A DNA stretch of 64,000 nucleotides, from positions 795,505-859,504 of the forward strand of contig JAHFKK010000001.1 of NCBI GenBank assembly GCA_023245335.1, given 5' to 3'. Source of the DNA: Candidatus Gottesmanbacteria bacterium. Lineage in GTDB: Bacteria > Patescibacteriota > Microgenomatia > UBA10105 > UBA927. Numbering within the stretch: position 1 is the first letter of the stretch; each line of letters opens with the position of its first letter. The notes beneath the pieces are model-generated. The model made no database searches. It was not told where the DNA came from and saw only the letters and a program-made list of their open reading frames with translations. Shown here in pieces: positions 24,201 through 53,267 of the stretch. The position numbers were made by a program, and so were the translations under genes.

Positions 24201-26204
24201 ATGAATCAATTTAAGCTTGTTTCCGACTTCAAACCGACCGGGGATCAGCCCGAAGCAATAGACAAACTGACAAACGGACTCGCAAAGAAGCGTCCGGACC
24301 AGGTGTTGGTCGGTGTAACAGGGAGCGGCAAGACATTTACCATGGCCAACGTGATTGAGAGGGTACAGCGGCCAACGCTCATTATTTCTCATAACAAGAC
24401 ATTGGCCGCGCAACTCTATCAGGAATTCCGTGATTTTTTCCCGGAAAGTGCCGTCAGCTATTTCGTTTCGTATTATGACTACTATCAACCCGAGGCCTAT
24501 ATACCTCAAACGGACACGTATATCGAAAAGGAGACGGAAATAAATGACGAGATAGATAAATTGCGCTTAGCCGCGACAACCAATCTTTTGACGCGTCATG
24601 ACACGATCATCATCGCCTCCGTTTCGTGCATTTATAACATCGGTTCTCCGAAGGAATACGGACATTTCGTATTGGAACTCAAACCGGGCATCAAGATCTC
24701 ACGCCAAAGCATTTTTGAGAGGCTCGTGCAGCTGCAGTATGAGCGGAGCGACTATGGATTCCACCGCGGAACGTTCCGCGTCAGAGGACCGAACATCGAC
24801 ATATTCCCTGCGTATGAAAGTGAAAGCATCCGCATCACCCTGACGGAAAAAGGTATAGGTACCATTACCCGGCATGATCCGCTTACCGGTAAAACACTGG
24901 AAAATCTCCTGGGAACCGTCATATATCCCGCCAAACACTACATGACTGATCCGAGAAACTATAAAGAAGTGTTTGCCGTCATAGAGAAGGATCGTGACGA
25001 ACGCGTCGCGGAATTTAAGAAACATGAGAAATTTATAGAAGCTCAACGCATACAGGAACGAGTCACCTATGACCTTGAAATGATTCAGGAGGTGGGGTAT
25101 GTCAACGGCATAGAGAACTACAGCCGTTATTTTGACGGCCGGAAGCCGGGAGAACCGCCGTATTCACTTCTGGATTACTTTGAGGAGGCGGTAAAAAGAG
25201 ACTGGCTGCTATTTATAGATGAGTCGCACATGACCATTCCTCAAATACGCGGCATGTATCAGGGTGACCGCTCACGGAAACAGACGCTTATTGATTATGG
25301 CTTCCGTCTGCCGGCGGCCATAGATAACCGGCCGCTTCGGTTTGAAGAATTCCTGCGGCGCATACCGCAAACGATCTATGTTTCAGCGACTCCCGATGAA
25401 TGGGAAGTCTCACGGGCCATGCAATCAGGCAGCGAGGCTATCTCGGAGCAGCTCATACGACCAACCGGTCTCACGGATCCCGAAATCTCCGTACGCCCAA
25501 GCAGAGGCCAAATAGAGGATCTCAGGCACGAAATTGAAGACCGCGTCACCCGTCACGAACGCGTCCTTGTGACGACTCTTACCAAGCGGACAGCCGAAGA
25601 TTTGGCGAAGTTTTTGTCGGATCACGGGCTCAAGGTACATTATCTTCACTCGGATGTAGAAACGCTCGAGCGAAGTGATATCCTCGCGGATTTGCGGGGA
25701 GGCACATACGACGTCGTGGTCGGTATTAATCTGTTGCGGGAAGGGCTGGATTTGCCGGAAGTTTCTCTCGTCGCGATCCTCGACGCCGACAAGGAGGGCT
25801 TCCTCCGGAGCCGCACCAGTCTCATCCAGACTATGGGAAGGGCATCGCGCCACTTACACGGGAGGGTCATTCTCTACGCTGATACGATGACCAAATCCAT
25901 GACGGCCGCTATCTCCGAAGTGGAACGTCGCCGCGAAATCCAATTGTCTTACAACCGAAAGAACAATATTACGCCTCTTTCTATCGTCAAACCGATCCGT
26001 TCGCGGCTGGTCGAAAAGGAAAAGGAGATCGTAGATGACCTGGAGGCATCGCTCAAACCGGAAGCCCTCGAAGCGATGACGCCTATGGACAAAAAGAAAA
26101 AACTCGTACAATTAAATCAACTCATGCGCCAGGCTAGTAAGGACTTGGATTTTGAAACAGCAGCCAAATACAGAGACATGATTAGCGGACTCGAGAAGTC
26201 CTAA
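24201..26204 (+). CDS. uvrB: excinuclease ABC subunit B
   Basis: GDQPEAI, GVTGSGKTFTMA Walker A, SYFVSYYDYYQPEAY beta-hairpin region, helicase motifs, C-terminal UVR domain. Confidence 0.9.
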   Translation: MNQFKLVSDFKPTGDQPEAIDKLTNGLAKKRPDQVLVGVTGSGKTFTMANVIERVQRPTLIISHNKTLAAQLYQEFRDFFPESAVSYFVSYYDYYQPEAYIPQTDTYIEKETEINDEIDKLRLAATTNLLTRHDTIIIASVSCIYNIGSPKEYGHFVLELKPGIKISRQSIFERLVQLQYERSDYGFHRGTFRVRGPNIDIFPAYESESIRITLTEKGIGTITRHDPLTGKTLENLLGTVIYPAKHYMTDPRNYKEVFAVIEKDRDERVAEFKKHEKFIEAQRIQERVTYDLEMIQEVGYVNGIENYSRYFDGRKPGEPPYSLLDYFEEAVKRDWLLFIDESHMTIPQIRGMYQGDRSRKQTLIDYGFRLPAAIDNRPLRFEEFLRRIPQTIYVSATPDEWEVSRAMQSGSEAISEQLIRPTGLTDPEISVRPSRGQIEDLRHEIEDRVTRHERVLVTTLTKRTAEDLAKFLSDHGLKVHYLHSDVETLERSDILADLRGGTYDVVVGINLLREGLDLPEVSLVAILDADKEGFLRSRTSLIQTMGRASRHLHGRVILYADTMTKSMTAAISEVERRREIQLSYNRKNNITPLSIVKPIRSRLVEKEKEIVDDLEASLKPEALEAMTPMDKKKKLVQLNQLMRQASKDLDFETAAKYRDMISGLEKS

Positions 26205-26916
26205 GCCGCCTCCCCAAATGGTGGACAAACACACGCGCGACATACCATGAATCCTTGAGTATTTTATAATGGCTCGCACGGTTCTTGTTGAGATAAATCG
26301 TTTCAATAGGGAATTCTACGATGGGTATCCCGGCGTTTATTGCCTGGACGATCATGTCGAGTTCAAAATCGTATTTATCAAATACACTCCCGACGCATTG
26401 CTCCATAAGTCCGGCCGGTATATAGCGCAATCCCGACTGCGTATCTCCCACATGGGTTCCGTGTAAAAGACGCAAAAATCCGCGTGTCAGTGCGTTGCCG
26501 GTACGGCTTTTGAGCGGCATGTTTGACCGGGTCACCCTCGTCCCGATAAGGAAGGCTGTTGCGCTCTTACGTGCGAGCGCATCGCAAATGAGTATGTCGT
26601 GAGCGACATGCTGCCCGTCAGCGTCGGCGGTTATGATGCCGCCTGCTTCCGGCATAGTGCGGAGTATATGCTGCATAGCAGTCTTCAAAGCCGCGCCCTT
26701 TCCTTTATTCTTCGTGTGTACGAGAAGTGATGCTTCATACGAGCGGACTAAACGCCGAAATAGAGGGTTAAAGGAAGGATGGCTGCCGTCGTTGACGATC
26801 ACAATCGGAGCCGTGTGATTTTTCCTAAGCGAGTCCACAAAGGGCTCAAATTCACCCGGAGGATTATATACGGGTATGACGACCGGTATAACGCTCGGCT
26901 TTTTCATCGTTTCCAT
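26182..26916 (-). CDS. family 2 glycosyltransferase
   Basis: VIPVYNP...VIVNDGS...DADGQH (DxD) motifs of GT2 (dolichyl-phosphate-mannose-synthase-like); 3' end overlaps uvrB convergently. Confidence 0.7.
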   Translation of the reverse strand: METMKKPSVIPVVIPVYNPPGEFEPFVDSLRKNHTAPIVIVNDGSHPSFNPLFRRLVRSYEASLLVHTKNKGKGAALKTAMQHILRTMPEAGGIITADADGQHVAHDILICDALARKSATAFLIGTRVTRSNMPLKSRTGNALTRGFLRLLHGTHVGDTQSGLRYIPAGLMEQCVGSVFDKYDFELDMIVQAINAGIPIVEFPIETIYLNKNRASHYKILKDSWYVARVFVHHLGRRLRTSRVR

Positions 26917-27041
26917 ACTATATCAGGTGCCCTCTTATAAACAAAGCTGGATGGTGAGTTGGCCTCGAGAATCTGTATGCAGGAATACAAATAATTAGTG
27001 TATAATGCATAAGCCACGGTGCATCGGTGGTCATTTTGCTT

Positions 27042-29972
27042 ATGGAAAATATAGTAATTAAAGGCGCCAGACAGCATAATCTCAAGGATATCTCGCTTAC
27101 CATACCCAAAAACAAACTCGTGGTATTTAGCGGGCTGTCCGGGTCCGGCAAGTCATCGCTTGCCTTTGACACCATTTATGCCGAAGGCCAAAGGCGCTAT
27201 GTCGAATCCCTCTCCTCGTATGCGCGGCAATTTTTGGGCGTCATGGACAAACCGGACGTAGATACGATAGAGGGCCTGTCACCATCTATTTCCATAGATC
27301 AGAAGTCCGCTTCTCATAATCCCAGGTCTACGGTAGGTACGGTCACCGAAATATATGACTACCTGCGGTTACTATTCGCGAGGGCCGGCCATCCTCATTG
27401 TCCGAACTGCGGCAGAGAAATTTCACGGATGTCCTCGGACCAGATTGTGAACGCGATCCTTGCCATGGGCGCCGAACGGCTTACTGACAGACGCGCCAAA
27501 CAATTCCGTATGGCCGTTCTTTCCCCGGTTGTACGCGACCATAAAGGCGAATTCACCAGTCTATTTGATAATCTCAAAGCCAAGGGCTACCGCCAGATCC
27601 GCGTAGATGGAGTATTTATGGATCTCGATGAGGATCGGACACTCATAAAGACCAACAAACACACGATCGACGTCATCATAGACCGCATCAGCATGGATAA
27701 ACCAAGCCTCAAGCCGGAATTTGTCGGCAGCATACGGTCGAGATTATCCGACGCGGTCAGTCAGTCACTCGCGCTATCCGACGGACTTGTTGTCGTAGGC
27801 GAGATTACCGATCGGGGCTTTGACCTACCGGACAAGCCCAAAAGCATGAATGACCATATATTTTCAGAAAAATTCAGTTGTCCCGTATGCAACATCGCCT
27901 TACCGGAAATCGAACCAAGATCATTTTCCTTCAATTCACCGCACGGAGCTTGCCCGGCGTGTCTCGGGTTAGGTACCATCCTGACCGTAGACCCTGATCT
28001 GGTGTTGAGTCCCGAACTTTCCGTATCCGAAGGCGGCGTATTGCCGTTTGCCAAGACGTTTTTGCATGATACCTGGTATGCACGCGTCGTGTCGACCGTT
28101 GCTGCCAAACATGGGATTAACTTGCGCGCGCCGCTTAAGAATCTCACATCCAAGCAACGCCAGATTCTCCTCTATGGCACAGGGGACGACATCCATCATG
28201 TCAAGGGAACCAACCGTTTCGGTGAAATGACCGCTATAGAAGAAACATTTCGGGGATTCGTACCGGAACTTATGAAGCGTCATGCCGAAACCGATTCGGA
28301 TTTTCTGCGTCTTGAGATCGAAAAGTATATGCGTCAGGAGGTATGCAAGTCCTGTAACGGACGCCGCCTCAAAAACGAAAGTTTACAGATTACGATCGAT
28401 AAATTTTCGATCGCAGACGTTACGGATCTCAGCATAACCGACTCCCTCGCGTGGGTAAAAACTCTCGTCAAACGCGAGGAGCCTGTTTTGACCGAAACCG
28501 AACGCCAAATAGCGACTCCTATCGTGAAAGAAGTCATGGCTCGTCTCGGATTTTTGGTAAGTGTGGGACTCGAGTACCTGACACTCTCTCGAAGTGCGAC
28601 CACGCTTGCGGGAGGGGAGGCCCAGCGCATACGCCTCGCGTCGCAAATTGGATCAGGGCTCACGGGGGTGCTCTATGTTCTGGATGAGCCATCCATCGGA
28701 CTGCATCCGCGAGACAACCACCGTCTCATCGCGACGCTCAAGGCGCTTCGTGATTTGGGTAATTCTGTCATTGTCGTCGAGCACGACCGGGAAATGATTG
28801 AATCAGCGGATTGGATCGTCGATTTCGGCCCGGGAGCCGGCAAATACGGGGGCACGGTTATTTCCGAGGGGACCGTTGCACATGTACGTAATGACCCAAA
28901 GTCCGTTACCGGCCAGTATTTATCCGATAAGAAACGAATTAAGATAACCAAATCGCCGCTTTTGGATTTGACACCCCGCTCAATTACCATAACGGACGTC
29001 ACCCATAATAACCTCAAGGGCATCACCGTTTCTGTCCCGGTAGGGAAATTTGTTTGTTTTACGGGAGTGTCCGGCAGCGGCAAATCGTCACTCATCGTCG
29101 AAACGCTTTTCCCGGCGCTGCAACGGCAATTCAATCCTTTTATGAAAGAACGGCCCGGAGCGTTTACGGGGCTTAAAGGCACAGAAGCGATAGACAAAGT
29201 CATTCTCATTGACCAGTCGCCCATAGGCCGTACGCCCAGAAGTAATCCCGCGACCTATACGGGACTGTTTTCGTACATCCGCGAAATATATGCAGCCCTT
29301 TCGGAATCCAAAATCCGCGGATACAAAAGCGGAAGATTTTCTTTTAACGTTAAGGGCGGCAGATGTGAGGCATGTGAGGGCGAAGGACAGCGCAAAATAG
29401 AGATGCAGTTTCTTGCGGACGTCTATGTCACCTGTGAAGTCTGCGGCGGCAAGCGTTATAACGCCGATACGCTTGAAGTGACATATCGCGGCAAATCCAT
29501 AGCAGAGGTCTTGAATATGAGCATCGATGAAAGCCTGGACTTCTTCCATGCGCACCCGCACGTACTTCTAAAATTGCAGACACTCTTTGACGTAGGTTTA
29601 GGATATATGCAGCTTGGACAGGCGGCGACAACCTTATCAGGCGGCGAAGCGCAGAGGGTCAAGCTAGCGACAGAACTATCCCGCAGATCAACGGGAAAAA
29701 CCGTCTATATACTCGATGAACCGACGACCGGTCTCCACTTTGCCGATTTAGAAAAGTTGCTTGCCGTCCTCCATCGGTTGGTCGGAAGCGGCAACACGGT
29801 TATCGTCATAGAGCACAATCTGGATGTCATACGATCTGCTGATTGGGTCGTTGATCTCGGGCCCGAGGGGGGAGATAATGGCGGACGCATTGTCTGCGCG
29901 GGTACGCCTCACGACGTCATGAAAGAGAAACATTCTTATACCGGACAGTTTTTGAAAAAAGCGCTAGAATAA
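27042..29972 (+). CDS. uvrA: excinuclease ABC subunit A
   Basis: IVIKGARQHNLKDISL, two ABC ATPase modules (GLSGSGKSS / GVSGSGKSS), zinc-finger Cys clusters (CPNCG, CEACEGEG...CEVCGG). Confidence 0.9.
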   Translation: MENIVIKGARQHNLKDISLTIPKNKLVVFSGLSGSGKSSLAFDTIYAEGQRRYVESLSSYARQFLGVMDKPDVDTIEGLSPSISIDQKSASHNPRSTVGTVTEIYDYLRLLFARAGHPHCPNCGREISRMSSDQIVNAILAMGAERLTDRRAKQFRMAVLSPVVRDHKGEFTSLFDNLKAKGYRQIRVDGVFMDLDEDRTLIKTNKHTIDVIIDRISMDKPSLKPEFVGSIRSRLSDAVSQSLALSDGLVVVGEITDRGFDLPDKPKSMNDHIFSEKFSCPVCNIALPEIEPRSFSFNSPHGACPACLGLGTILTVDPDLVLSPELSVSEGGVLPFAKTFLHDTWYARVVSTVAAKHGINLRAPLKNLTSKQRQILLYGTGDDIHHVKGTNRFGEMTAIEETFRGFVPELMKRHAETDSDFLRLEIEKYMRQEVCKSCNGRRLKNESLQITIDKFSIADVTDLSITDSLAWVKTLVKREEPVLTETERQIATPIVKEVMARLGFLVSVGLEYLTLSRSATTLAGGEAQRIRLASQIGSGLTGVLYVLDEPSIGLHPRDNHRLIATLKALRDLGNSVIVVEHDREMIESADWIVDFGPGAGKYGGTVISEGTVAHVRNDPKSVTGQYLSDKKRIKITKSPLLDLTPRSITITDVTHNNLKGITVSVPVGKFVCFTGVSGSGKSSLIVETLFPALQRQFNPFMKERPGAFTGLKGTEAIDKVILIDQSPIGRTPRSNPATYTGLFSYIREIYAALSESKIRGYKSGRFSFNVKGGRCEACEGEGQRKIEMQFLADVYVTCEVCGGKRYNADTLEVTYRGKSIAEVLNMSIDESLDFFHAHPHVLLKLQTLFDVGLGYMQLGQAATTLSGGEAQRVKLATELSRRSTGKTVYILDEPTTGLHFADLEKLLAVLHRLVGSGNTVIVIEHNLDVIRSADWVVDLGPEGGDNGGRIVCAGTPHDVMKEKHSYTGQFLKKALE

Positions 29973-36815: not shown

Positions 36816-36863
36816 CGCGTTTTACGCGGCGTAGAAACGTTTAACGTTTCGCTTTTACACCCG

Positions 36864-37139
36864 CTACTGAGAGTAATTATACCCTAGTTTAAAGAATATG
36901 TCATGAAGTTGGAGCGCTAATAACTTCCTTCCTGCACCACTTTTTAGAAACAATTCCCGCCTTCGTCCATCCGTCTCTAAAGAGTAAGATTCGTAATATA
37001 TAAGTTGTACCGGCAATCTATTTTTCGTGGATAGAACGTGTCCCGAAATATGTTTATGGAATCTTTTTTGAAGGTCAGGAGTAGAGCCGATATATAATTT
37101 ACCATCTTTTTTGCTATAAAGCACGTAAACGTAATACAT
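36864..37139 (-). CDS. GIY-YIG nuclease family protein (standalone)
   Basis: YYVYVLYSKKDGKLYIGSTPDLQKRFHKH GIY-YIG motif; about 90 aa. The ORF could extend to 37178; it sits within the tRNA cluster. Confidence 0.7.
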   Translation of the reverse strand: MYYVYVLYSKKDGKLYIGSTPDLQKRFHKHISGHVLSTKNRLPVQLIYYESYSLETDGRRRELFLKSGAGRKLLALQLHDIFFKLGYNYSQ

Positions 37140-37265: not shown

Positions 37266-37373
37266 ATGAACAAATACATTGTTAACGAAGTGATTCCCGC
37301 GCAAGCGTACGCCTGCGCCTTGTCCACTCAAGGGATCTATGGAACTACCTCGGCTGTTCAAATTCAAATTGGG

Positions 37374-40297: not shown

Positions 40298-40368
40298 GGC
40301 TGAAGTATATCAGATCTATTTACTCGTCATAAATAATAGATTGTCCGTATAGTCCAAATACAAACTTG

Positions 40369-40450
40369 TGCGGGCGAGAGGACTTGAACCTCTAAGCCTT
40401 ACGGCACAGCCTCCTCAAGACTGCGCGTCTACCAGTTTCGCCACGCCCGC
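40369..40450 (-). tRNA. tRNA-Leu (anticodon GAG)
   Basis: Type-II tRNA: acceptor GCGGGCG/CGCCCGC, D-arm TGGCGAAACTGGTAGACGC, anticodon stem CAGTC/GGCTG, loop TTGAGGA, long variable arm, T-arm GAGG-TTCAAGT-CCTC. Confidence 0.8.
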
Positions 40451-40479
40451 ATTTCAGAATCATCATTATATCAGTTTTG

Positions 40480-40563
40480 TGCCCAGAAGAGGACTCGAAC
40501 CTCCAAGGGATTACTCCCATACGCTCCTGAAGCGTACGCGTCTACCAATTCCGCCATCCGGGC
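40480..40563 (-). tRNA. tRNA-Leu (anticodon CAG)
   Basis: Acceptor GCCCGGA/TCTGGGC, D-arm TGGCGGAATTGGTAGACGC, anticodon stem TACGC/GCGTA, loop TTCAGGA, long variable arm. Confidence 0.8.
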
Positions 40564-44958: not shown

Positions 44959-45004
44959 GAAGCAATTATATAAAGGCTATTGACGCGATTTGATATAGTA
45001 TTTG

Positions 45005-45078
45005 TCGGGGTGGAGAGACTCGAACTCTCAACCTCATCGTCCCAAACGATGCGCGCTAGCCAATTGCGCCACACCCCG
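45005..45078 (-). tRNA. tRNA-Pro (anticodon TGG)
   Basis: Acceptor CGGGGTG/CACCCCG, anticodon stem CATCG/CGATG, loop TTTGGGA, T-arm GAGAG-TTCGAGT-CTCTC. Confidence 0.8.
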
Positions 45079-45187
45079 CTATTTCTGGGACGGAAACTAC
45101 GTTTCCTTCCCAACGATCCTTCCTATATTGTATCGCGACCTATTCATACGCCGCAGTCACGGTCGCGATAAATTTGTTATAATTATT
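45079..45187 (-). ncRNA. conserved two-hairpin tRNA leader element, copy C (upstream of tRNA-Pro)
   Basis: TA-rich -10-like box, hairpin ATCGCGACC-(20 nt loop ending GAATA)-GGTCGCGAT, then the invariant core GGAAGGATCGTTGGGAAGGAAACGTAGTTTCCGTCCCA(A)GA abutting the tRNA 5' end; same architecture as copies A and B. Confidence 0.55.
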
Positions 45188-45246
45188 TTCCTACGTCTGA
45201 GCAGTGCTCTCACGTGTATTTTAACAGAATACGATACAATAAGGCT

Positions 45247-46179
45247 ATGACAGCTCTAACGCTCGCAGTTCTCGCATACAAAGCCAAAGTAGATGCACAT
45301 CTGACTTCTTCCGTCCTCTCTCTACGCAAAGAATGGAACGCACATCCGTGGACCGAAGATGCTCTTACCAGGATTTCGAAATTCGCGGTCGCCGGAAAGA
45401 CTGTCCGAGGGAGTCTTGTCGTTTACACATATAATCTTTTTCGAAAAGAAACACCGGACGTTGTATGGGACGTCGCCTCAGCTATGGAATTATTTCAATC
45501 CGGACTCCTCATCCACGATGACATTATGGACCGGGACACCATCCGACGCAGTATGCCCACACTTCATTCTCAATATGAACAATTTGCGGCATCACAAAAG
45601 GGAAGCGACGTCTCTCATTTTGGCGAAAGCCAGGCCATAAACCTCGCCGACCTTTGCTATTTTATAGGTTTCAGGCTGCTAAGTAGTGCCGGCCCGGCTG
45701 TGACCCATATGGTAACTACGGAACTTTCCGTTGTCGCACTCGCACAGATGCAGGATGTCGCAGGCGGTCACCTGACCAAGACCTACGAGAAGAACGACGT
45801 TATCGATCTCTACCGACATAAAACCGCGCGATACACATTTTCTATGCCCATGATGGCCGGCGCAATTATGGCCGGTACGGATACTCGGGTACAATCCTCA
45901 TTTGAACGGCTTGGTGAATCGTTGGGGCTATTGTTTCAAATCCGCGACGACGAATTAAACGCGACAGGCGATACGGACGTGACCGGCAAGTCTGCCGGTT
46001 CCGATGCTACCAACCACAAACAAACACTCTCCAGCGTCCTTGCCGCTTCTGAACTTGAGAAGTTTCGTCGGCAACTGCGTATCGATGCGCAATCTATCAT
46101 ACGTACGCTCCCTATAAGCGACGACCATATACGGGAGCTGACGGCACTCTTGAAATTCTGCGAGGAACGAACCCACTAA
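45247..46179 (+). CDS. polyprenyl diphosphate synthase (trans-isoprenyl diphosphate synthase family)
   Basis: First and second Asp-rich motifs LIHDDIMDRD and FQIRDDELN. Confidence 0.8.
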   Translation: MTALTLAVLAYKAKVDAHLTSSVLSLRKEWNAHPWTEDALTRISKFAVAGKTVRGSLVVYTYNLFRKETPDVVWDVASAMELFQSGLLIHDDIMDRDTIRRSMPTLHSQYEQFAASQKGSDVSHFGESQAINLADLCYFIGFRLLSSAGPAVTHMVTTELSVVALAQMQDVAGGHLTKTYEKNDVIDLYRHKTARYTFSMPMMAGAIMAGTDTRVQSSFERLGESLGLLFQIRDDELNATGDTDVTGKSAGSDATNHKQTLSSVLAASELEKFRRQLRIDAQSIIRTLPISDDHIRELTALLKFCEERTH

Positions 46180-46180
46180 C

Positions 46181-46621
46181 ATGAATAGAACCATTCTTAT
46201 TATCGGCATCATTATTCTCCTCATTCTCGGTTTCTACTACCGCTCTCACCCCCTCAGCTCGAAAGTAAAAATACACGATACGGTATTTACCGTAGAAACC
46301 GCAGTCACCGAGCCTCAAAAACAATTGGGATTAGGCGGCAGAACCAATCTAGAAACTAACCATGGGATGCTGTTTATCTACGATCACAAAGAACAATACA
46401 ATTTTTGGATGAAGGATATGCATTTCCCACTCGACTTTATCTGGATAAACGGCAAGACAGTCGCTGACATAACCAAAAACGTTCCGCCACCAACGGGGGA
46501 TGGGCAACCCGCGATCGTCGTACCCAAAGAGCAGGTGGATAAAGTGTTAGAAATTAATGCAGGAACGATCCAAGCGCTTCATATCCAACCTGGCGACGAG
46601 GTGGAATTTCTTGATCGGTAA
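46181..46621 (+). CDS. DUF192 domain protein
   Basis: N-terminal TM anchor followed by the pattern LGLGGR...GMLFIY...NFWMKDMHFPLDFIWIN, typical of the DUF192/COG1430 family. Confidence 0.6.
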   Translation: MNRTILIIGIIILLILGFYYRSHPLSSKVKIHDTVFTVETAVTEPQKQLGLGGRTNLETNHGMLFIYDHKEQYNFWMKDMHFPLDFIWINGKTVADITKNVPPPTGDGQPAIVVPKEQVDKVLEINAGTIQALHIQPGDEVEFLDR

Positions 46622-46663
46622 ACAGTTTATTCTCACGCACAAACACGATATAATTGGTTTCAC

Positions 46664-46734
46664 GCGGGTGTAGCTCAATGGTAGAGCGCCAGTTTTCCAA
46701 ACTGGTGACGAGGGTTCGATTCCCTTCATCCGCT
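46664..46734 (+). tRNA. tRNA-Gly (anticodon TCC)
   Basis: Acceptor GCGGGTG/CATCCGC plus T and CCA, anticodon stem CCAGT/ACTGG, loop TTTCCAA; TATAAT 10 nt upstream. Confidence 0.8.
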
Positions 46735-46738
46735 CCAA

Positions 46739-46811
46739 GCCCCAGTAGCTCAATGGATAGAGCAGATCGGTTCTAACGATAAGGTTGGGGGTTCGAATCC
46801 CTCCTGGGGCG
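46739..46811 (+). tRNA. tRNA-Arg (anticodon TCT)
   Basis: Acceptor GCCCCAG/CTGGGGC plus G and CCA, anticodon stem (G)ATCG/CGAT(A), loop GTTCTAA, T-arm GGGGG-TTCGAAT-CCCTC; begins 2 nt after tRNA-Gly's CCA. Confidence 0.75.
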
Positions 46812-46841
46812 CCAACGAGACGAAAATAATAAGGAATCCTC

Positions 46842-48548
46842 ATGTACGCGATACTTTGTTTCATCATAAGCGTCTTTATCCTTGCCCCGGCGGTCTACGC
46901 AAAATATGATCCTGCGAGCGTTCCGAACAACAAATTCGGCATCCATATCGTGGACGTCAACGATATCGCAGACGCGGCAACACTCGTCAACAGCACCAAC
47001 GGCGATTGGGGGTACATCACACTGGTCATCCAGGAAGACGACCGCAACTTTGACAAATGGCAGCGGGTATTTGATCAAATGAGGCGCCTACACCTCATTC
47101 CGATTGTCCGGCTCGCGACCCACGTACAGGGAACCTCCTGGGTCATTCCGTCGCGCGACAGCGCAGAGGATTGGTCTCGATTCCTCAATTCCCTAAACTG
47201 GCCGACGGAAAACCGCTATGTCATCCTCTTTAATGAACCCAATCACGCCAACGAATGGGGCGGACAACTGGACCCGGAAGGCTATGCCGACATAGTGAGT
47301 CTGTTTACGGATACCTTGCACAAAACGTCAGAAGATTTTTTTGTCATGCCGGGAGGCTTAGATGATTCCGCCTCATCTGATGGCGAAGCACTGGATGCGG
47401 CAACGTACTGGTCACGCATGCTCGCCCATGCATCGACGGTCTTTGATGCTGTCGACGGCTGGAGCTCGCATTCCTATCCGAACCCGGGGTTTTCCGGTTC
47501 TCCCTATGCGACAGGCCGGGGCACACTCTACTCGTATATCTGGGAACGAAATATACTGCGTAATCTCGGATTCGCCAAAACCTTACCGCTTTTCATCACC
47601 GAAACAGGATGGGTGCATTCGCAAGGAGAAGTATTTAACCCGGGATTGCTCACCACGGACCAGGTGGGAAACAACTTGAAAATTGCAGCCCAAAACGTAT
47701 GGAGCGATCCGTCGATTCTCGCAGTTACGCCGTTTGTCCTCAACTATCAGGCGTACCCTTTTGATCATTTTTCCTGGCGTGTTTTGGGATCAAATGACTA
47801 TTACTCACAATACGGCGCATACCAGAGTATCGCAAAAACTAGCGGCACCCCCAAGCAGCGGGAACGCTTTACCTTTGCTACCCGCATTTTACCCTCTACT
47901 CTCGTCGCCGGGTCTACCTACACCGTATCAGAAACGCTAAAAAACGAAGGACAAAGCATTCTCTCAGATCAGGAAGGATATTCGCTCACGCTGAAAACAG
48001 ACGGTAAATTTGCTATGGTGAGCGACCCCTTACCTATACTGGAACCCAAACAATCCGGCACGGTGACTATACACATAGAAACTCCAGGCACACCATCCTT
48101 GTTTACCTATGCGCTTGAACTCACCCATTTGGGGCAGGCAACGACGATCGAATCGGGGACGATCCGGCTCGTCCCACCGCCTTCGGTCAGCGTGTCTGTC
48201 CAGCTGGGCTGGAGATCGGTCAATACCGCCTCAGACGCAACCATTCTTATCTACGATGACAAAACGCTTCTTCACAAAGTAAACGGCGTGAACCTCAAGG
48301 AGGGGCAAGCCACAATAGAAGGGCTCCGGAACATCGTACCTGATAAACCGTACCGTGTCGTGGTCCTTGTACCGTATTATCTGCCCCGCCAGGCGATCAG
48401 CAAATTATCCGCGAGGAATACCAAAGTCGCACTTTCCCGCATGTATCCTTTGGATTTTAACCTGGACGGGAAACTATCACTCGCTGACCTTCTTGCGGCC
48501 CTTCAGTTAAAGCCCAACTTTATCGCATCGCTTTTCGTCGGACCCTAG
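46842..48548 (+). CDS. secreted clan GH-A / family-5-like glycoside hydrolase with C-terminal dockerin-like segment
   Basis: Signal peptide; catalytic acid/base in ILFNEPNHANEWGG (NEP) and nucleophile in LFITETGWV (TE.G). C-terminal LDFNLDGKLSLADLLAAL resembles a dockerin Ca-binding repeat. Confidence 0.55.
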   Translation: MYAILCFIISVFILAPAVYAKYDPASVPNNKFGIHIVDVNDIADAATLVNSTNGDWGYITLVIQEDDRNFDKWQRVFDQMRRLHLIPIVRLATHVQGTSWVIPSRDSAEDWSRFLNSLNWPTENRYVILFNEPNHANEWGGQLDPEGYADIVSLFTDTLHKTSEDFFVMPGGLDDSASSDGEALDAATYWSRMLAHASTVFDAVDGWSSHSYPNPGFSGSPYATGRGTLYSYIWERNILRNLGFAKTLPLFITETGWVHSQGEVFNPGLLTTDQVGNNLKIAAQNVWSDPSILAVTPFVLNYQAYPFDHFSWRVLGSNDYYSQYGAYQSIAKTSGTPKQRERFTFATRILPSTLVAGSTYTVSETLKNEGQSILSDQEGYSLTLKTDGKFAMVSDPLPILEPKQSGTVTIHIETPGTPSLFTYALELTHLGQATTIESGTIRLVPPPSVSVSVQLGWRSVNTASDATILIYDDKTLLHKVNGVNLKEGQATIEGLRNIVPDKPYRVVVLVPYYLPRQAISKLSARNTKVALSRMYPLDFNLDGKLSLADLLAALQLKPNFIASLFVGP

Positions 48549-48648
48549 CCTCAAATTCTGCAAACCCGCACCAAATAAGGTACAATAATGATGGGTGAAT
48601 CGTGAGGAAAGCGCGCCGGATAAGCCAGAGGGCCTAGACCTAATTGGG

Positions 48649-48745
48649 TATAATTCGTCGTGAGCGTGCCTTCAAGGGTGAATAGCTCACGACACCTTGG
48701 TAGAAAGGATCGTTGGGAAGGAAACGTAGTTTCCGTCCCAAGAAT
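48649..48745 (+). ncRNA. conserved two-hairpin tRNA leader element, copy A (upstream of tRNA-His)
   Basis: Starts at TATAAT; hairpin CGTCGTGAGC-(loop gtgccttcaagggtgaata)-GCTCACGAC, then core GGTAGAAAGGATCGTTGGGAAGGAAACGTAGTTTCCGTCCCAAGA with a second near-palindrome GGGAAGGAAAC/GTTTCCGTCCC; ends 1 nt before the tRNA-His G-1. Confidence 0.55.
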
Positions 48746-48821
48746 GGTGGCTGTAGCTCAGCCTGGTTAGAGCGTCTGCCTGTGGAGCAGAATGTCGGCG
48801 GTTCGAATCCGCTCAGCCACC
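48746..48821 (+). tRNA. tRNA-His (anticodon GTG) with encoded G-1
   Basis: G-1 opposite C73, acceptor GTGGCTG/CAGCCAC, anticodon stem TCTGC/GCAGA, loop CTGTGGA, T-arm GGCGG-TTCGAAT-CCGCT. Confidence 0.85.
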
Positions 48822-48860
48822 CATAATAGCGTTGAAATTATTTTATACATAGAGGAGTCC

Positions 48861-50504
48861 ATGACAGACGTAATTCATCACGAAGAAGAGACGGAAGAAC
48901 CGAAACAGTCCAAAGATCAGCAACTGACGACATCTATGCCGACGCTTGCCCCGATTGTCACCGATCTTATTACGACCTATGGTGAAGGAACCGTCATAGG
49001 AAAGACTGGCGTCGGGTATAACGTCAGCCGTGCGGTTTCTGCATTCGCAGTCTTATTTGAAAAAGTCCGCAATGCGGTCGAATTCCGCGCAGAACACCTC
49101 ATCCGCAGAGCCGCCATTGAACGCATCCTCAAACGGCGTGTGCTTTTAAACGGTGCTGCCGGATCCATCGCAGAAAATCTCATTACCGAGCTTCTTTGGG
49201 CCAAATATATAGATAGTTCTTTCGTCGATGAAGCAAAAATCTCGGAGATCACCCTCATTATCGACAAATATCTTGTCATCAAACAGGCCATCTCCGCAGG
49301 GCACGCCGATATTCCCTGGGATTATGTTCTGGGCGTGGCATCTTCAGAAATCGACGAAGCGATCATTCCGGCCAAAAAACGACAAGCGCTTCTGTACTTC
49401 TTTTACCAGGCCAACCGATCGAAAATATCCCTCGTCGGCGTCGACGAACAACAAACAAACCTTATAACTCTCGTCGCTTGCGAACGAGCATATATGCAAT
49501 CGGATGACGCGCTCATTGCGTTTCACATGACCATGCTTCTGTTGCCGGAATGGTCCAACAATGCCAAGGAAATTGCCGCTCCCTCCGTCTCGCAATTCCT
49601 CCAAACCGCCCATACTATCCGGGCGGCCCTCACGCATCCATTAACAAGCGCCGTATTCCGGTATTTGCGCCGACAGGTGCCGCCGTTTCTCTTGCTTCGG
49701 GACTTCTTCGCGGATGCGGGTCCGGAAGTAAAGAATTATATAGAAGACCCGAAAAAATTTGATGAAAAGCTTACGGAAATAGCGATCCGCCGGTATAACG
49801 AAACCGGACAAAAAGTACGACGGGCCATGGTCCGCAGTTTCATCTATATCTTCCTCACAAAAATGGTTTTCGCATTCGCGCTCGAAGCGCCGTATGACAT
49901 GTACATCATGAAAAAGCTTGCGGTGATCCCACTTGTCGTCAATACGCTTTTCCCGCCCGTCATGCTTTTTCTTGTCGCGGGGCTCTTCAGCGTACCGGGT
50001 GCAGACAACACGCGACGGCTCATCGATCGGATTCATAAACTTATCTACCACTTTGACCAAATCAAGGACGAAAAAGACAACTTTAGCGAAAAACAAAAAG
50101 ACCGCAGGCCGGTTCTCTCTGCCGGGTTTTCGTTTATGTATCTTGCGACATTCGCTATCACGTTCGGTCTTATCAATATCGTGCTCTCCGCACTGCAGTT
50201 TAGTATCCCCAGCAAAATTATTTTCGTCTTCTTCGTCGCCTTGGTATCATTTTTTGCTTACCGGATCCGGCATTCTGCCAAAGAATACGAAATGATCGAC
50301 CGGCAGGGAATCCTCGAGCCCCTCATGGACTTTTTCCTCCTACCCGTCCTGCAGGCCGGACAATTGCTGTCTCAGGGGATAGCCAAACTCAACATATTTA
50401 TCTTTGTCTTTGACTTCATACTAGAAGCGCCGCTCAAAACTATATTTGAGGTTGTCGAAGAATGGATCCGCTTTATCCGCGTCAAGAAGGACGAGATCGT
50501 CTAG
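48861..50504 (+). CDS. hypothetical membrane protein (acidic N-terminus, C-terminal multi-TM region)
   Basis: 547-aa ORF starting at the ATG at 48861 with AGAGGAG RBS (the listed ORF start at 48792 lies inside tRNA-His). Several hydrophobic helices in the last 200 aa; no recognisable domain. Confidence 0.4.
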   Translation: MTDVIHHEEETEEPKQSKDQQLTTSMPTLAPIVTDLITTYGEGTVIGKTGVGYNVSRAVSAFAVLFEKVRNAVEFRAEHLIRRAAIERILKRRVLLNGAAGSIAENLITELLWAKYIDSSFVDEAKISEITLIIDKYLVIKQAISAGHADIPWDYVLGVASSEIDEAIIPAKKRQALLYFFYQANRSKISLVGVDEQQTNLITLVACERAYMQSDDALIAFHMTMLLLPEWSNNAKEIAAPSVSQFLQTAHTIRAALTHPLTSAVFRYLRRQVPPFLLLRDFFADAGPEVKNYIEDPKKFDEKLTEIAIRRYNETGQKVRRAMVRSFIYIFLTKMVFAFALEAPYDMYIMKKLAVIPLVVNTLFPPVMLFLVAGLFSVPGADNTRRLIDRIHKLIYHFDQIKDEKDNFSEKQKDRRPVLSAGFSFMYLATFAITFGLINIVLSALQFSIPSKIIFVFFVALVSFFAYRIRHSAKEYEMIDRQGILEPLMDFFLLPVLQAGQLLSQGIAKLNIFIFVFDFILEAPLKTIFEVVEEWIRFIRVKKDEIV

Positions 50505-50547
50505 ACACCCCCATTTAGCCCTAAAGATGATATAATTTACTGAGTTT

Positions 50548-50621
50548 GCGCCTGTAGCTCAGCGGATTAGAGCATCTGTCTTCGGAACAGAGGGTCGGGG
50601 GTTCAATTCCCTCCAGGCGCG
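50548..50621 (+). tRNA. tRNA-Arg (anticodon TCG)
   Basis: Acceptor GCGCCTG/CAGGCGC plus G, anticodon stem TCTGT/ACAGA, loop CTTCGGA, T-arm GGGGG-TTCAATT-CCCTC; TATAAT 11 nt upstream. Confidence 0.8.
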
Positions 50622-50679
50622 CACAAAATGGTAATCGAGAAGACACATAGGAAGAACCAGATTACATCTATTTGTAGAA

Positions 50680-50777
50680 TATAATTCGTCGTGAGCGTGA
50701 CTATTCGGGTGAATAGCTCACGACACATTGGTAGAAAGGATCGTTGGGAAGGAAACGTAGTTTCCGTCCCAAGAACA
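50680..50777 (+). ncRNA. conserved two-hairpin tRNA leader element, copy B (upstream of tRNA-Lys)
   Basis: Near-identical to copy A from the TATAAT onward, except the hairpin-1 loop centre (actattcgg vs ccttcaagg) and one other base; the invariant core abuts the tRNA-Lys 5' end. Confidence 0.55.
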
Positions 50778-50850
50778 GGGCGCATAGCTCAATTGGCAGA
50801 GCAACTCCCTCTTAAGGAGTCGGTTGGAGGTTCGATTCCTCCTGCGCTCA
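50778..50850 (+). tRNA. tRNA-Lys (anticodon CTT)
   Basis: Acceptor GGGCGCA/TGCGCTC plus A, anticodon stem ACTCC/GGAGT, loop CTCTTAA, T-arm GGAGG-TTCGATT-CCTCC. Confidence 0.8.
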
Positions 50851-50858
50851 CAAACAAT

Positions 50859-51593
50859 ATGTCTGCTTTTAACCTCAACGAACATTTAGTGAAGGACCAT
50901 AAACGCACGCCGTTCTCGAAATACCTCAGAGAAATTACCTACGGAGGAAACGACGGGATCGTGACCACGTTTGCTGTGGTCGCTGGATTTGCCGGGGCCG
51001 CTGCAGACCCAGCTTCCTCTACCATCCCTATCATCACCGTACTTCTTTTCGGTTTAGCAAATCTGCTTGCTGATGGTTTATCCATGAGCCTGGGAAGTTT
51101 TCTGTCGCTACGGGCAGACCAGGACATGTACAAAAAAGAACGGCAGAAAGAGATCCAAGAAATTGCTGAAACACCTGATCATGAAGTAGAGGAAACGATC
51201 GAGATTCTGAGACAGAAAGGCTTTTCGCTCCCGGATGCGAAAGTGATTACCCGTATGTACCAAAAAAATCACCCGTACTGGATTGAATTCATGATGAAAG
51301 ACGAATTGGAGATGTCGAACCCCGAACAGGAACATCCGACATATGTTGCTCTTTCTACCTTCCTTTCTTTCGTATCTTTCGGCTCTATACCGCTTATTCC
51401 GTACTTTCTCCATCTGCCCGGTAACAGTTTTCCGTACTCCGTGATGGCAACCATTGTAGCGCTCAGTTTACTGGGAATACTCCGCGGTTCTGTCTCCCAT
51501 GAAAAGCCATACCAGGCAGTGTTTGAGACCATATGCGTTGGTGGAATCGCAGCAGCGTCCGCCTACATAGTCGGATCATTCTTCCGAATCTGA
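50859..51593 (+). CDS. VIT1/CCC1 family iron/manganese transporter
   Basis: EITYGGNDGIVTTFAVVAGFAGA N-terminal signature (GxNDGxxTxxxxVxG), central cytoplasmic acidic helical region, C-terminal TM helices. Start at the ATG at 50859, since the listed ORF start overlaps tRNA-Lys. Confidence 0.75.
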   Translation: MSAFNLNEHLVKDHKRTPFSKYLREITYGGNDGIVTTFAVVAGFAGAAADPASSTIPIITVLLFGLANLLADGLSMSLGSFLSLRADQDMYKKERQKEIQEIAETPDHEVEETIEILRQKGFSLPDAKVITRMYQKNHPYWIEFMMKDELEMSNPEQEHPTYVALSTFLSFVSFGSIPLIPYFLHLPGNSFPYSVMATIVALSLLGILRGSVSHEKPYQAVFETICVGGIAAASAYIVGSFFRI

Positions 51594-52602: not shown

Positions 52603-53151
52603 ATGAAAAACATACTTGCCGCCCTTACGATCGTGAGCATTTTAGCGCTGTTGCGTCAACCTGTGTATGCAATAGAGCTTTCCATGTCTGATCCCTCCGC
52701 GAAAGCTAATGGTACCGTCGTGGAGACGGATCCACGACCCATGCGCCTCAAAGCCTATTTGACCGCTAAAGGCTCTCCCATGGCCCAGGATGCTGATTTC
52801 TTTGTGAACGAAGCTGATCGTCTGAACGTCGATTGGAAATTGGTCGCAGCCATCGCCGGCGTAGAATCAGGTTTCGGGCAGCATATCCCCACCGGTTCGT
52901 TCAACGCCTGGGGTTGGGGAGTGTTTACCGGGACCAATGACGGCGTCCATTTCGCGTCGTGGAAAGACGGTATCACCCAAGTATCCGAAGGACTTCGCAC
53001 GAAGTATCTCGATAAAGGTGCCCACACCGTTGATGAAATCGGCAGTATATATGCCGCTTCTCCTGTCTGGAGTTATAAAGTCAAATGGATGATCTCTGAC
53101 ATAGATGGGTATCATCCTCACTCTTCCGACTTACTAGCCGTTACCATCTAA
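52603..53151 (+). CDS. secreted putative peptidoglycan hydrolase (glucosaminidase/lysozyme-like), paralog 2
   Basis: Signal peptide; VAAIAGVESGFGQHIPTGSFNAWGWGVFTG aligns with paralog 1 (AIAMCESNVGKHIPSHDSFNAWGINVATG). Confidence 0.45.
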   Translation: MKNILAALTIVSILALLRQPVYAIELSMSDPSAKANGTVVETDPRPMRLKAYLTAKGSPMAQDADFFVNEADRLNVDWKLVAAIAGVESGFGQHIPTGSFNAWGWGVFTGTNDGVHFASWKDGITQVSEGLRTKYLDKGAHTVDEIGSIYAASPVWSYKVKWMISDIDGYHPHSSDLLAVTI

Positions 53152-53160
53152 CATACTCTC

Positions 53161-53185
53161 GAGAGGAAACCTTGGTTTCCTCTCG
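53161..53185 (+). terminator. possible terminator hairpin
   Basis: Perfect 11-bp stem GAGAGGAAACC/GGTTTCCTCTC immediately after the stop codon; no T tract, so efficiency is uncertain. Confidence 0.35.
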
Positions 53186-53267
53186 ACGCGCACTGAGCAT
53201 AGCTCAGTAAAAACAGCGCTGCTCTCTTTCCTTTAGCATAGCATTTCACATATAATAAGTTCGCTTT

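Follow-up and report, generated by a model that had tools for sequence, protein, structure and literature searches.

A covarying two-hairpin leader element before tRNA genes of Patescibacteria that is gained and lost among close relatives

Three tRNA genes in a 64,000-nt stretch of a Candidatus Gottesmanbacteria genome (contig JAHFKK010000001.1, positions 795,505 to 859,504; the window hereafter) are each preceded by a long leader that is predicted to form two hairpins, P1 and P2, joined by a linker. On the comparative evidence, this leader is an element of the sense-strand RNA that belongs to a family present in several lineages, is strictly placed before tRNAs in Patescibacteria, has undergone compensatory evolution and has repeatedly been gained and lost. 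Bacterial tRNA 5′ leaders are normally short and unremarkable, and the Patescibacteria are organisms with very few known regulators. A covarying leader domain associated with 15 anticodons in several Patescibacteria lineages, and absent from Rfam, amounts to a new RNA family. Two signals that are usually found apart come together in it: where a copy stays at its site the fold is under purifying selection, yet copies are often gained and lost, and in other phyla the family shows a repeat-like spread.

A sequence-only reading of the window had proposed a two-hairpin leader common to three tRNA loci, and this was borne out. The 34-nt pattern GGATCG...CCCA matches the window exactly three times, at 45086-45119 (minus strand), 48707-48740 (plus) and 50738-50771 (plus), with no match in 100 shuffles and none expected by chance. 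Copy A precedes tRNA-His (48747-48822) and copy B tRNA-Lys(ctt) (50778-50851), both on the plus strand, and copy C precedes tRNA-Pro(tgg) (45004-45078) on the minus strand. The order in all three is P1 hairpin, linker and P2 hairpin, with the end of P2 4-6 nt from the mature 5′ end of the tRNA. The block that is identical in the three copies is AAGGATCGTTGGGAAGGAAACGTAGTTTCCGTCCCA; at 36 nt it confirms the identity of the core that had been described, though not its length of 45 nt, and to call the core invariant was an overstatement as copies with a diverged core, both orthologous and paralogous, exist (L060, L013:65-152 and L023:2130-2217, where L numbers denote comparison loci). Copies A and B agree at 90 of 98 positions (92%) when compared from the TATAAT box up to the tRNA, matching the near identity over about 100 nt reported earlier. 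Five of the differences are in the P1 loop, and in the 100 nt upstream of the TATAAT identity is only 51%. Copy C is 70-72% identical to A and to B. The TATAAT adjoining P1 is clear in A and B and ambiguous in C. A covariance-model search of the window, which holds 16 tRNAs, returned copies A, B and C only, so the leader is indeed restricted to a subset of the tRNAs. Where the other window tRNAs have an upstream region of their own, most show a -10-like box at a distance of 9-14 nt from the mature 5′ end, and one shows it at 21 nt; a close box had been noted from the sequence, at a slightly shorter 7-11 nt.

P1 is formed by 9 bp in copies A and B (arms GTCGTGAGC/GCTCACGAC) and by 10 bp in copy C (arms TATCGCGACC/GGTCGCGATA), with loops of 19-20 nt; the 9-bp stem first proposed therefore applies to A and B, and the loop of about 20 nt to all three. 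Between A/B and C three P1 pairs are altered on both sides, which is the compensatory change that had been read from copy C. P2 (TTGGGA-A-GGAAAC-GTA-GTTTCC-G-TCCCAA) has 12 bp and one A/G mismatch. When folded singly the three window copies give z-scores of -6.4, -4.2 and -3.4, each beating all 200 of its own shuffles. All ten P1 pairs change on both sides in a MAFFT alignment of 17 sequences, where 94% of the cells are paired compared with 26-56% if the partners are slid. An alignment of 34 sequences from all lineages, which was fitted to the model and so favours structure, has changes on both sides in 18 of 22 pairs, including eight of the 12 P2 pairs; 96% of its cells are paired compared with 32-55% when slid, and its covariation score was reached by none of 500 shuffles. 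RNAalifold, run independently on six longer sequences, recovered P1 and P2 and nothing else, and on the 5′ part of the cassette it found no conserved structure. G-U pairs occur on the tRNA-sense strand, where the opposite strand would have A-C mismatches. Together with the covariation in the 34 sequences, this upholds the earlier suggestion of selection on RNA structure. At the level of sequence evolution, both helices have been kept by compensatory change and the fold is under purifying selection once in place.

Judged from the sequences, the strongest single result for selection on the fold is a pair of orthologous copies. In L060, whose neighbouring protein shares 85% identity, a copy occupies the position of copy B within the tRNA-Arg(tcg)-tRNA-Lys(ctt) spacer. 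The element is 73% identical between the two, compared with 74 of 74 positions for tRNA-Lys. Three P1 pairs and two P2 pairs have changed on both sides, the A/G mismatch has become an A-U pair, no stem change breaks a pair and the P1 loop is nearly unchanged. The sequence of the linker is not absolutely required, since GGATCG has become GAAAAT in L060. A triplex or mirror repeat linking the linker with P2 was considered and dropped; it agrees with L013:65-152 and the canonical copies but fails for L060 and L023:2130-2217.

Placement and orientation of the element before tRNAs are strict in Patescibacteria. Twenty matches to the Patescibacteria-type model, 17 of them independent, end 1-8 nt upstream of a tRNA on the same strand, with P2 itself ending 3-10 nt before the tRNA. 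The 15 anticodons covered are His, Lys-ctt, Lys-ttt, Pro-tgg, Pro-ggg, Arg-gcg, Gln, Gly-gcc, Gly-tcc, Phe, Ala-cgc, Ala-ggc, Asp, Thr-ggt and Leu-taa. Two copies depart from this rule. One is placed between rplJ and rplL, and the other, in L043, is followed by the reverse complement of a tRNA, that is, a convergent tRNA-like gene that ARAGORN does not call. None of 15 copies from other lineages adjoins a tRNA. From 28 to 64 kb of the window the sign of the GC skew does not change; as copies A/B and C face opposite ways within this one domain, orientation follows the tRNA and not replication. The skew changes sign at about 25000-28000, where cumulative skew peaks, suggesting a replication origin or terminus there.

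Comparison with syntenic loci reveals filled and empty sites. At tRNA-His five loci keep the promoter AAATAxGxTACAAT while the interval from promoter to tRNA differs, and only the window has the element. The interval is about 17 nt in L005 and 60 nt in L061, a 90% relative that has the promoter and the first ~30 nt of the leader in common with the window and then 27 nt in place of the cassette. In L060 a different insert of 116 nt is found here (L060:2999-3125), with a direct repeat of 9 bp on its two sides (TGGTGGCTG, with which tRNA-His begins), and in L002 a small GIY-YIG open reading frame (ORF) of 98 aa preceded by a duplicated 5′ half of tRNA-His (L002:7533-7840). At tRNA-Pro, the tRNA of L005 begins 8 nt after the box of the common promoter ATTGTATCGTATTCTGnTAAAAT, where the window has ~139 nt that include copy C. 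In L029 and L048 a TGGTATAAT promoter is separated from tRNA-Ala(cgc) by the element; in L039 the same promoter is 12 nt from this tRNA and the element is absent, but it is present before tRNA-Ala(ggc). Some genomes have the element in the Gly-Gln and Val-Phe spacers, which in the window are without it, and Arg-Lys spacers also vary. Neither fuzzy matching nor either covariance model detected diverged copies at the syntenic tRNAs of relatives with 62-82% identity (L002, L005 and L007). Since close relatives keep the promoters yet do not have the element at the same tRNAs, it is gained and lost as a cassette. By these comparisons the unit that is present or absent measures ~130-145 nt and occupies the interval from the transcription start to where the tRNA begins.

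In copies A and C the promoters common to element-free sites lie 45-75 nt upstream of P1, and no terminator-like site was found between tRNA-Arg and copy B. The TATAAT box thus lies inside the leader and is not the promoter that is common to element-free sites. A TAnAAT-like box is found 1-3 nt before P1 in nearly all Patescibacteria copies. A sigma-70 scan with an obligatory -35 box was uninformative in the window. Several promoters of the tRNAs at 40479-40563, 40368-40450 and 50548-50622 have an extended -10 (TGATATAAT) and no recognisable -35; the native leaders of these tRNAs would be only ~3-7 nt. The tRNA 5′ flanks of this clade also gather other insertions, among them further small GIY-YIG ORFs between tRNA genes (L007:12613-13486 and L023:305-540).

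The family extends well beyond the window. A degenerate pattern applied to one genome per species found nine loci, four in Patescibacteria and five in Christensenella/Clostridiales. In each of the four (Gottesmanbacteria, Levyibacteriota, Saccharibacteria and one unclassified) the element is directly before a tRNA, and in the other five the same core is found in intergenic or 5′-untranslated regions. Between Patescibacteria and Clostridia a 30-nt core has 85-100% identity. A metagenome scan gave 38 further stretches, about two-thirds of which were judged to be real copies; these comprise additional Patescibacteria-type copies before tRNAs and a multi-copy high-GC group. Eight metagenome matches from one protein-coding gene family, with the pattern but without the hairpin, were discarded, as were a few others from which the fold was missing. 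On viral contigs, partial copies with the linker and P2 only were found in a PBSX-like phage tail module, antisense to the genes of a prophage-like contig. A covariance model built from 17 Patescibacteria copies recovered diverged copies that the patterns had missed, two before tRNA-Gly(gcc) (L013:65-152 and L023:2130-2217) and a third at L060:5009-5095. The wider search that had been suggested from the window alone therefore does yield copies, in related and in unrelated genomes.

The copies outside the Patescibacteria differ in context. Those of the high-GC group have P1, linker and P2, most with a third, variable hairpin right after P2, and L046 has three copies within 4.2 kb. Two high-GC copies are in frame and without stops, in gatB (L019:1034-1107, minus) and comEC (L046:1802-1872, minus), with ~20 nt of coding sequence imperfectly duplicated on either side of the latter. 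Of ten high-GC copies examined, six have direct repeats of 8-23 nt at their flanks. In Clostridiales the genes downstream of the copies are unrelated to one another, namely SDR, DegV, adk and one unknown gene. A helix follows 0-4 nt after P2 in 9-10 of 14 non-Patescibacteria copies, the place that is taken by the tRNA acceptor stem in Patescibacteria.

No match to a described family emerged. With gathering thresholds, Rfam 15 identified only tRNAs in the window and in nine loci, and when E was relaxed to 10 for copy A and a Christensenella copy, or to 1 for five further loci, there was only noise; the Rfam search proposed in the sequence-only reading thus gave no match to the core. BLAST against phage and plasmid records returned chance-level matches or none. 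A full-text search of published papers gave no relevant match to the core sequence on either strand or to Patescibacteria tRNA-leader motifs, and a published study on group I introns within tRNA genes of Patescibacteria is silent on leaders.

The reading that we favour, with moderate confidence, is that the element is a leader cassette which duplicates, folds by itself and has come to be tolerated or domesticated at the single site of a compact genome at which surplus RNA is cut away. The cassette of ~130-145 nt has a conserved 3′ part of ~90 nt consisting of two independent hairpins and the purine-rich linker between them. Promoter conservation suggests that its transcription would begin at the promoter of the tRNA itself or would be shared with an upstream tRNA, and the covariation shows that it folds on its own as a long structured 5′ leader. 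This leaves 3-10 unpaired, mostly A/G-rich nucleotides before the tRNA, and from general tRNA biology the leader would presumably be removed when RNase P makes the mature 5′ end. A self-contained fold would keep the leader from disturbing the folding and processing of the tRNA. The family itself appears to be dispersed and duplicative, being gained and lost at single tRNA genes in Patescibacteria and found elsewhere between genes, inside ORFs and on a prophage-like contig. Among the four functions listed in the sequence-only reading, a tRNA-targeting miniature mobile element best fits the pattern of presence and absence, though terminal inverted repeats are missing. It had also been allowed that the copies might be degraded insertion-sequence ends; with neither terminal inverted repeats nor target-site duplications at the window copies, this seems not to be so. 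How the element moves and why it constantly faces the tRNA could, once worked out, reveal a new route of targeting or recombination, or a new control of tRNA processing.

Several points weigh against this reading. The ends of the segment shared by A and B (TATAATTCG... and ...CCCAAGAA) have no terminal inverted repeats of the kind seen in miniature inverted-repeat transposable elements (MITEs), the inverted repeats being the internal P1 and P2. No target-site duplication was seen at window copies A and C on comparison with empty sites, and no mobilising gene, be it for a transposase, a reverse transcriptase or another enzyme, was identified. Patescibacteria genomes seem to carry few copies each, with a single exact pattern match in one related Gottesmanbacteria genome. 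A 30-nt core kept across phyla is expected of an RNA that binds a conserved partner more than of an insert that is merely passive. Here a sample bias enters, as the search patterns demanded most of the core; its invariance is partly an artefact of the search, because the covariance model found diverged copies that the patterns missed. The fitting of the 34-sequence alignment to the model is to be counted on the same side. A -10-like box is also conserved before P1; were it to fire, the RNA would begin within P1, although the outer pairs of this stem covary. Lastly, transcription from the upstream promoters, the transcription start and removal by RNase P are steps that we infer, as is spread by duplication.

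The main rival is a dedicated cis-acting regulatory or processing leader, a lesser but real possibility in our estimation, in which the linker and P2 would be the binding site of a conserved partner, whether small molecule, protein, RNase P or RNA polymerase, and would thereby control the 5′ processing or transcription, through access or timing, of the RNA just downstream. Conservation of the core across phyla while the stems covary is reminiscent of a riboswitch and is in keeping with this, as are the strict sense orientation and the short unpaired tract that is always found before the tRNA. The helix after P2, be it the variable hairpin or the tRNA acceptor stem, is constant and so may belong to the design, and one copy between rplJ and rplL and another before adk also speak for this reading. 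The Patescibacteria linker also repeats the 5′ strand of P2 (UUGG..GAAGGA), so that an alternative pairing would be possible. However, before tRNAs the element is followed by no terminator or structure that would sequester a ribosome-binding site, the associated genes (SDR, DegV, adk and tRNAs) have no common function, and copies are found inside ORFs and antisense in the prophage-like contig. Close relatives manage without the element at the same tRNAs, and the L060 ortholog has lost GGATCG and much of the core. A bolder version, which we think rather improbable, would be an ancient cross-phylum RNA module built to sit 5′ of a helix, which either gates RNase P processing via a partner or spreads by an orientation-specific, RNA-level route to tRNA 5′ ends; in the latter case it would be the first bacterial element to target tRNA 5′ flanks.

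Small-RNA, DNA-level and ribozyme readings are less likely. A trans-acting small RNA, for which the tRNA would serve as 3′-end processing signal so that RNase P frees a stable RNA of 90-150 nt, is in our view unlikely. Leader and spacer fragments of tRNA transcripts do act as small RNAs in E. coli, and in every Patescibacteria copy the 3′ boundary is a few nt from the RNase P site; genomes carry several copies, each preceded by a strong tRNA promoter, and the folds are stable. Against this, accumulation of the leader RNA is putative, no tRNA is present to set a 3′ end for the copies inside ORFs or before rplL, close relatives are without the element and the sequence suggests no target or partner.

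It is quite improbable that the element acts as DNA, as a portable promoter or operator module or a recombination site, with the box as promoter and the palindromes as protein sites. The TAnAAT-like box close to P1, a CCAGA motif 17-20 nt upstream of the box in four copies and the near-palindromic nature of P2 would suit such a role. It is difficult to reconcile with stem pairing that is kept despite complete change of sequence, with G-U pairs on the sense strand only (A-C mismatches on the other), and with promoters, common to element-free relatives, that are upstream of the box; a start ~7 nt after the box would also fall inside P1, whose outer pairs covary. That the element is a novel self-cleaving ribozyme, which would release the 5′ end of the RNA that follows, is scarcely credible: scattered contexts, multiple copies, a compact conserved core and a position abutting the 5′ end of a helix do resemble the distribution of small ribozymes, but no Rfam ribozyme model (hammerhead, twister, pistol, hatchet, HDV-like or hairpin) matches even at E up to 10, the two hairpins are merely adjacent with no multi-helix junction or supported pseudoknot, cleavage could not give the mature end because the P2-tRNA distance varies from 3 to 10 nt, and the in-frame gatB copies would cut an essential mRNA.

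The features of the three window copies are listed in Table 1.

Table 1. Coordinates of the leader elements and associated features in the window
Feature	Position	Strand	Basis and remarks
Putative promoter -10 (TACAAT), tRNA-His unit	48581..48586	+	AAATAxGxTACAAT kept in 5 syntenic loci, element-free ones included; promoter role suggested by conservation
Copy A cassette, ~126 nt	48620..48745	+	absent from 90% relative L061; includes AAGCCAGAG at 48622-48630
Copy A TATAAT box, 2 nt before P1, inside leader	48649..48654	+	sequence
Copy A P1 (arms 48657-48665 and 48685-48693; 19-nt loop)	48657..48693	+	fold; covariation
Copy A purine-rich linker ACACCTTGGTAGAAAGGATCG	48694..48712	+	alignments; ...TAGRAAGGATCG conserved in retrieved copies
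Copy A P2 (12 bp, A/G mismatch, GTA loop)	48713..48741	+	fold; covariation; independent RNAalifold
Copy A 4-nt linker GAAT, encoded G-1 (48746) and tRNA-His	48742..48822	+	ARAGORN, Rfam
Copy B, entire tRNA-Arg(tcg)-tRNA-Lys(ctt) spacer with cassette	50623..50777	+	AACCAGAT at 50656-50663; TATAAT at 50680-50685; diverged ortholog in L060
Copy B P1 (arms 50688-50696 and 50716-50724)	50688..50724	+	fold; 3 compensatory pair changes compared with L060
Copy B linker	50725..50743	+	alignment
Copy B P2	50744..50772	+	fold; in L060 two G-C pairs are A-U and the A/G mismatch is A-U
Copy B 5-nt linker GAACA and tRNA-Lys(ctt)	50773..50851	+	
Putative promoter -10 (TAAAAT), tRNA-Pro unit	45218..45223	-	ATTGTATCGTATTCTGnTAAAAT common with L005; promoter role suggested by conservation
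Copy C leader/cassette, promoter to tRNA-Pro	45079..45217	-	CTCAGAC at 45195-45201; A/T-rich box region 45172-45187; filled/empty comparison with L005
Copy C P1 (arms 45161-45170 and 45131-45140; 20-nt loop)	45131..45170	-	fold
Copy C P2, outermost pair U-G on sense strand	45085..45113	-	pattern, fold
Copy C 6-nt linker AAATAG and tRNA-Pro(tgg)	45004..45084	-	

Some further features of these loci were noted. The leader of tRNA-Gly(gcc) in the window (36816-36880, minus) was considered as a decayed copy, but its alignment to the diverged copies of L013 and L023 is unconvincing; it extends over 62 nt after a TATAAT box and has two small hairpins, GAAACGTTaaACGTTTC and CGCGTaaaACGCG. A perfect P2-like palindrome at 53158-53190, TCGAGAGGAAACCttGGTTTCCTCTCGA, gives a weak covariance-model match on both strands. 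It comes just after an ORF ending at 53151 and ~80 nt before tRNA-Leu(tag), and may represent either a terminator or what is left of the element. Between tRNA-Val(tac) and tRNA-Phe the spacer (37266-37371, minus) contains a partial, interrupted copy of the tRNA-Phe 5′ region (GCCGAGGTAGT...CAAGGCGC), and at L023:1680-1860 a tRNA-like gene is seemingly interrupted near the anticodon loop by a segment with a complete tRNA-Val(tac), which could be a nested tRNA or intron-like. The 547-aa gene between copies A and B has homologues in Gottesmanbacteria, Microgenomates and other Patescibacteria. Gene callers run ORFs across such elements, as in the VIT1 call at 50691-51593, whose GTG start overlaps copy B and tRNA-Lys; the Pfam match starts from residue 79 and the in-frame ATG at 50859 is a likelier start.

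Amongst known mobile and repeated elements, MITEs are similar in that there are several non-coding copies with filled and empty sites, here at tRNA-His, Pro, Ala(cgc) and Ala(ggc) and in the Gly-Gln and Arg-Lys spacers. The REP/BIME, Correia and Rickettsia palindromic elements are likewise short, non-coding, hairpin-forming, dispersed and co-transcribed, with a presence that varies among relatives, and Rickettsia palindromic elements are found in frame inside ORFs as the high-GC copies are here. Each of these is confined to one lineage, whereas the core described here is common to Patescibacteria and Clostridia. In the RAYT-associated REP/BIME elements GTAG abuts an imperfect palindrome of 20-40 nt and copies are numerous, extragenic and in either orientation; here GTAG occurs in some copies only, 9-10 nt from P2, copy number is low and orientation strict. 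Elements derived from IS200/IS605 (PATE) have similar hairpins at their ends and an orientation tied to the replication strand, whereas P1 and P2 are unrelated, P1 varies within one genome and copies A/B and C are opposed within one GC-skew domain. Set against structured bacterial repeats in general, the element has no terminal inverted repeats, an orientation tied to the tRNA and stems that covary between orthologs. The repeated occupation of the few nt upstream of tRNA genes, a low-harm site, is shared with Ty3 and with TRE5-A of Dictyostelium. These however are coding retrotransposons guided by RNA polymerase III factors, while the element has no coding capacity or known enzyme; selection alone could also place it there, since an insertion survives only if it falls downstream of the transcription start and ahead of the tRNA.

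Amongst RNA elements, the 3′ETS-leuZ sponge of E. coli is also a by-product of tRNA processing with a possible role of its own, though spacers of that type are unstructured base-pairing sponges in one species, and the element is a 5′ leader with two conserved hairpins in several lineages. HK022 put and the boxB-boxA-boxC of rrn leaders similarly place two hairpins, or a hairpin and a conserved single strand, early in an untranslated transcript; no similarity to them was found and there are no evident downstream terminators for the element to overcome. Inspection of the alignments, made without a pattern search, gave no U-rich match to the boxA consensus (GCUCUUUAACAA-like) beside a hairpin, the linker being purine-rich (UAGGAAGGAUCG). 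Signal recognition particle RNA, the PyrR site, CsrA sites, loop B of the hairpin ribozyme and integron attC were checked by eye and set aside, with no model match or support from the order of the elements. Orphan riboswitch-like motifs have conserved junction nucleotides, covarying stems and a position upstream of genes, and the conserved linker and P2 with covarying stems are features of such a sensor, though the conservation stems partly from how the copies were found. They differ in that the element has no expression platform or coherent gene set, has copies inside ORFs and is frequently gained and lost; between element and tRNA there is no terminator-like site, and the downstream genes are functionally unrelated. 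As the element falls short of defining features of MITEs, REP elements, IS200/IS605 derivatives, riboswitches and known ribozymes, we file it under no known family. By sequence comparison, its behaviour resembles that of the structured bacterial repeats and its pattern of conservation that of the orphan riboswitch-like motifs.

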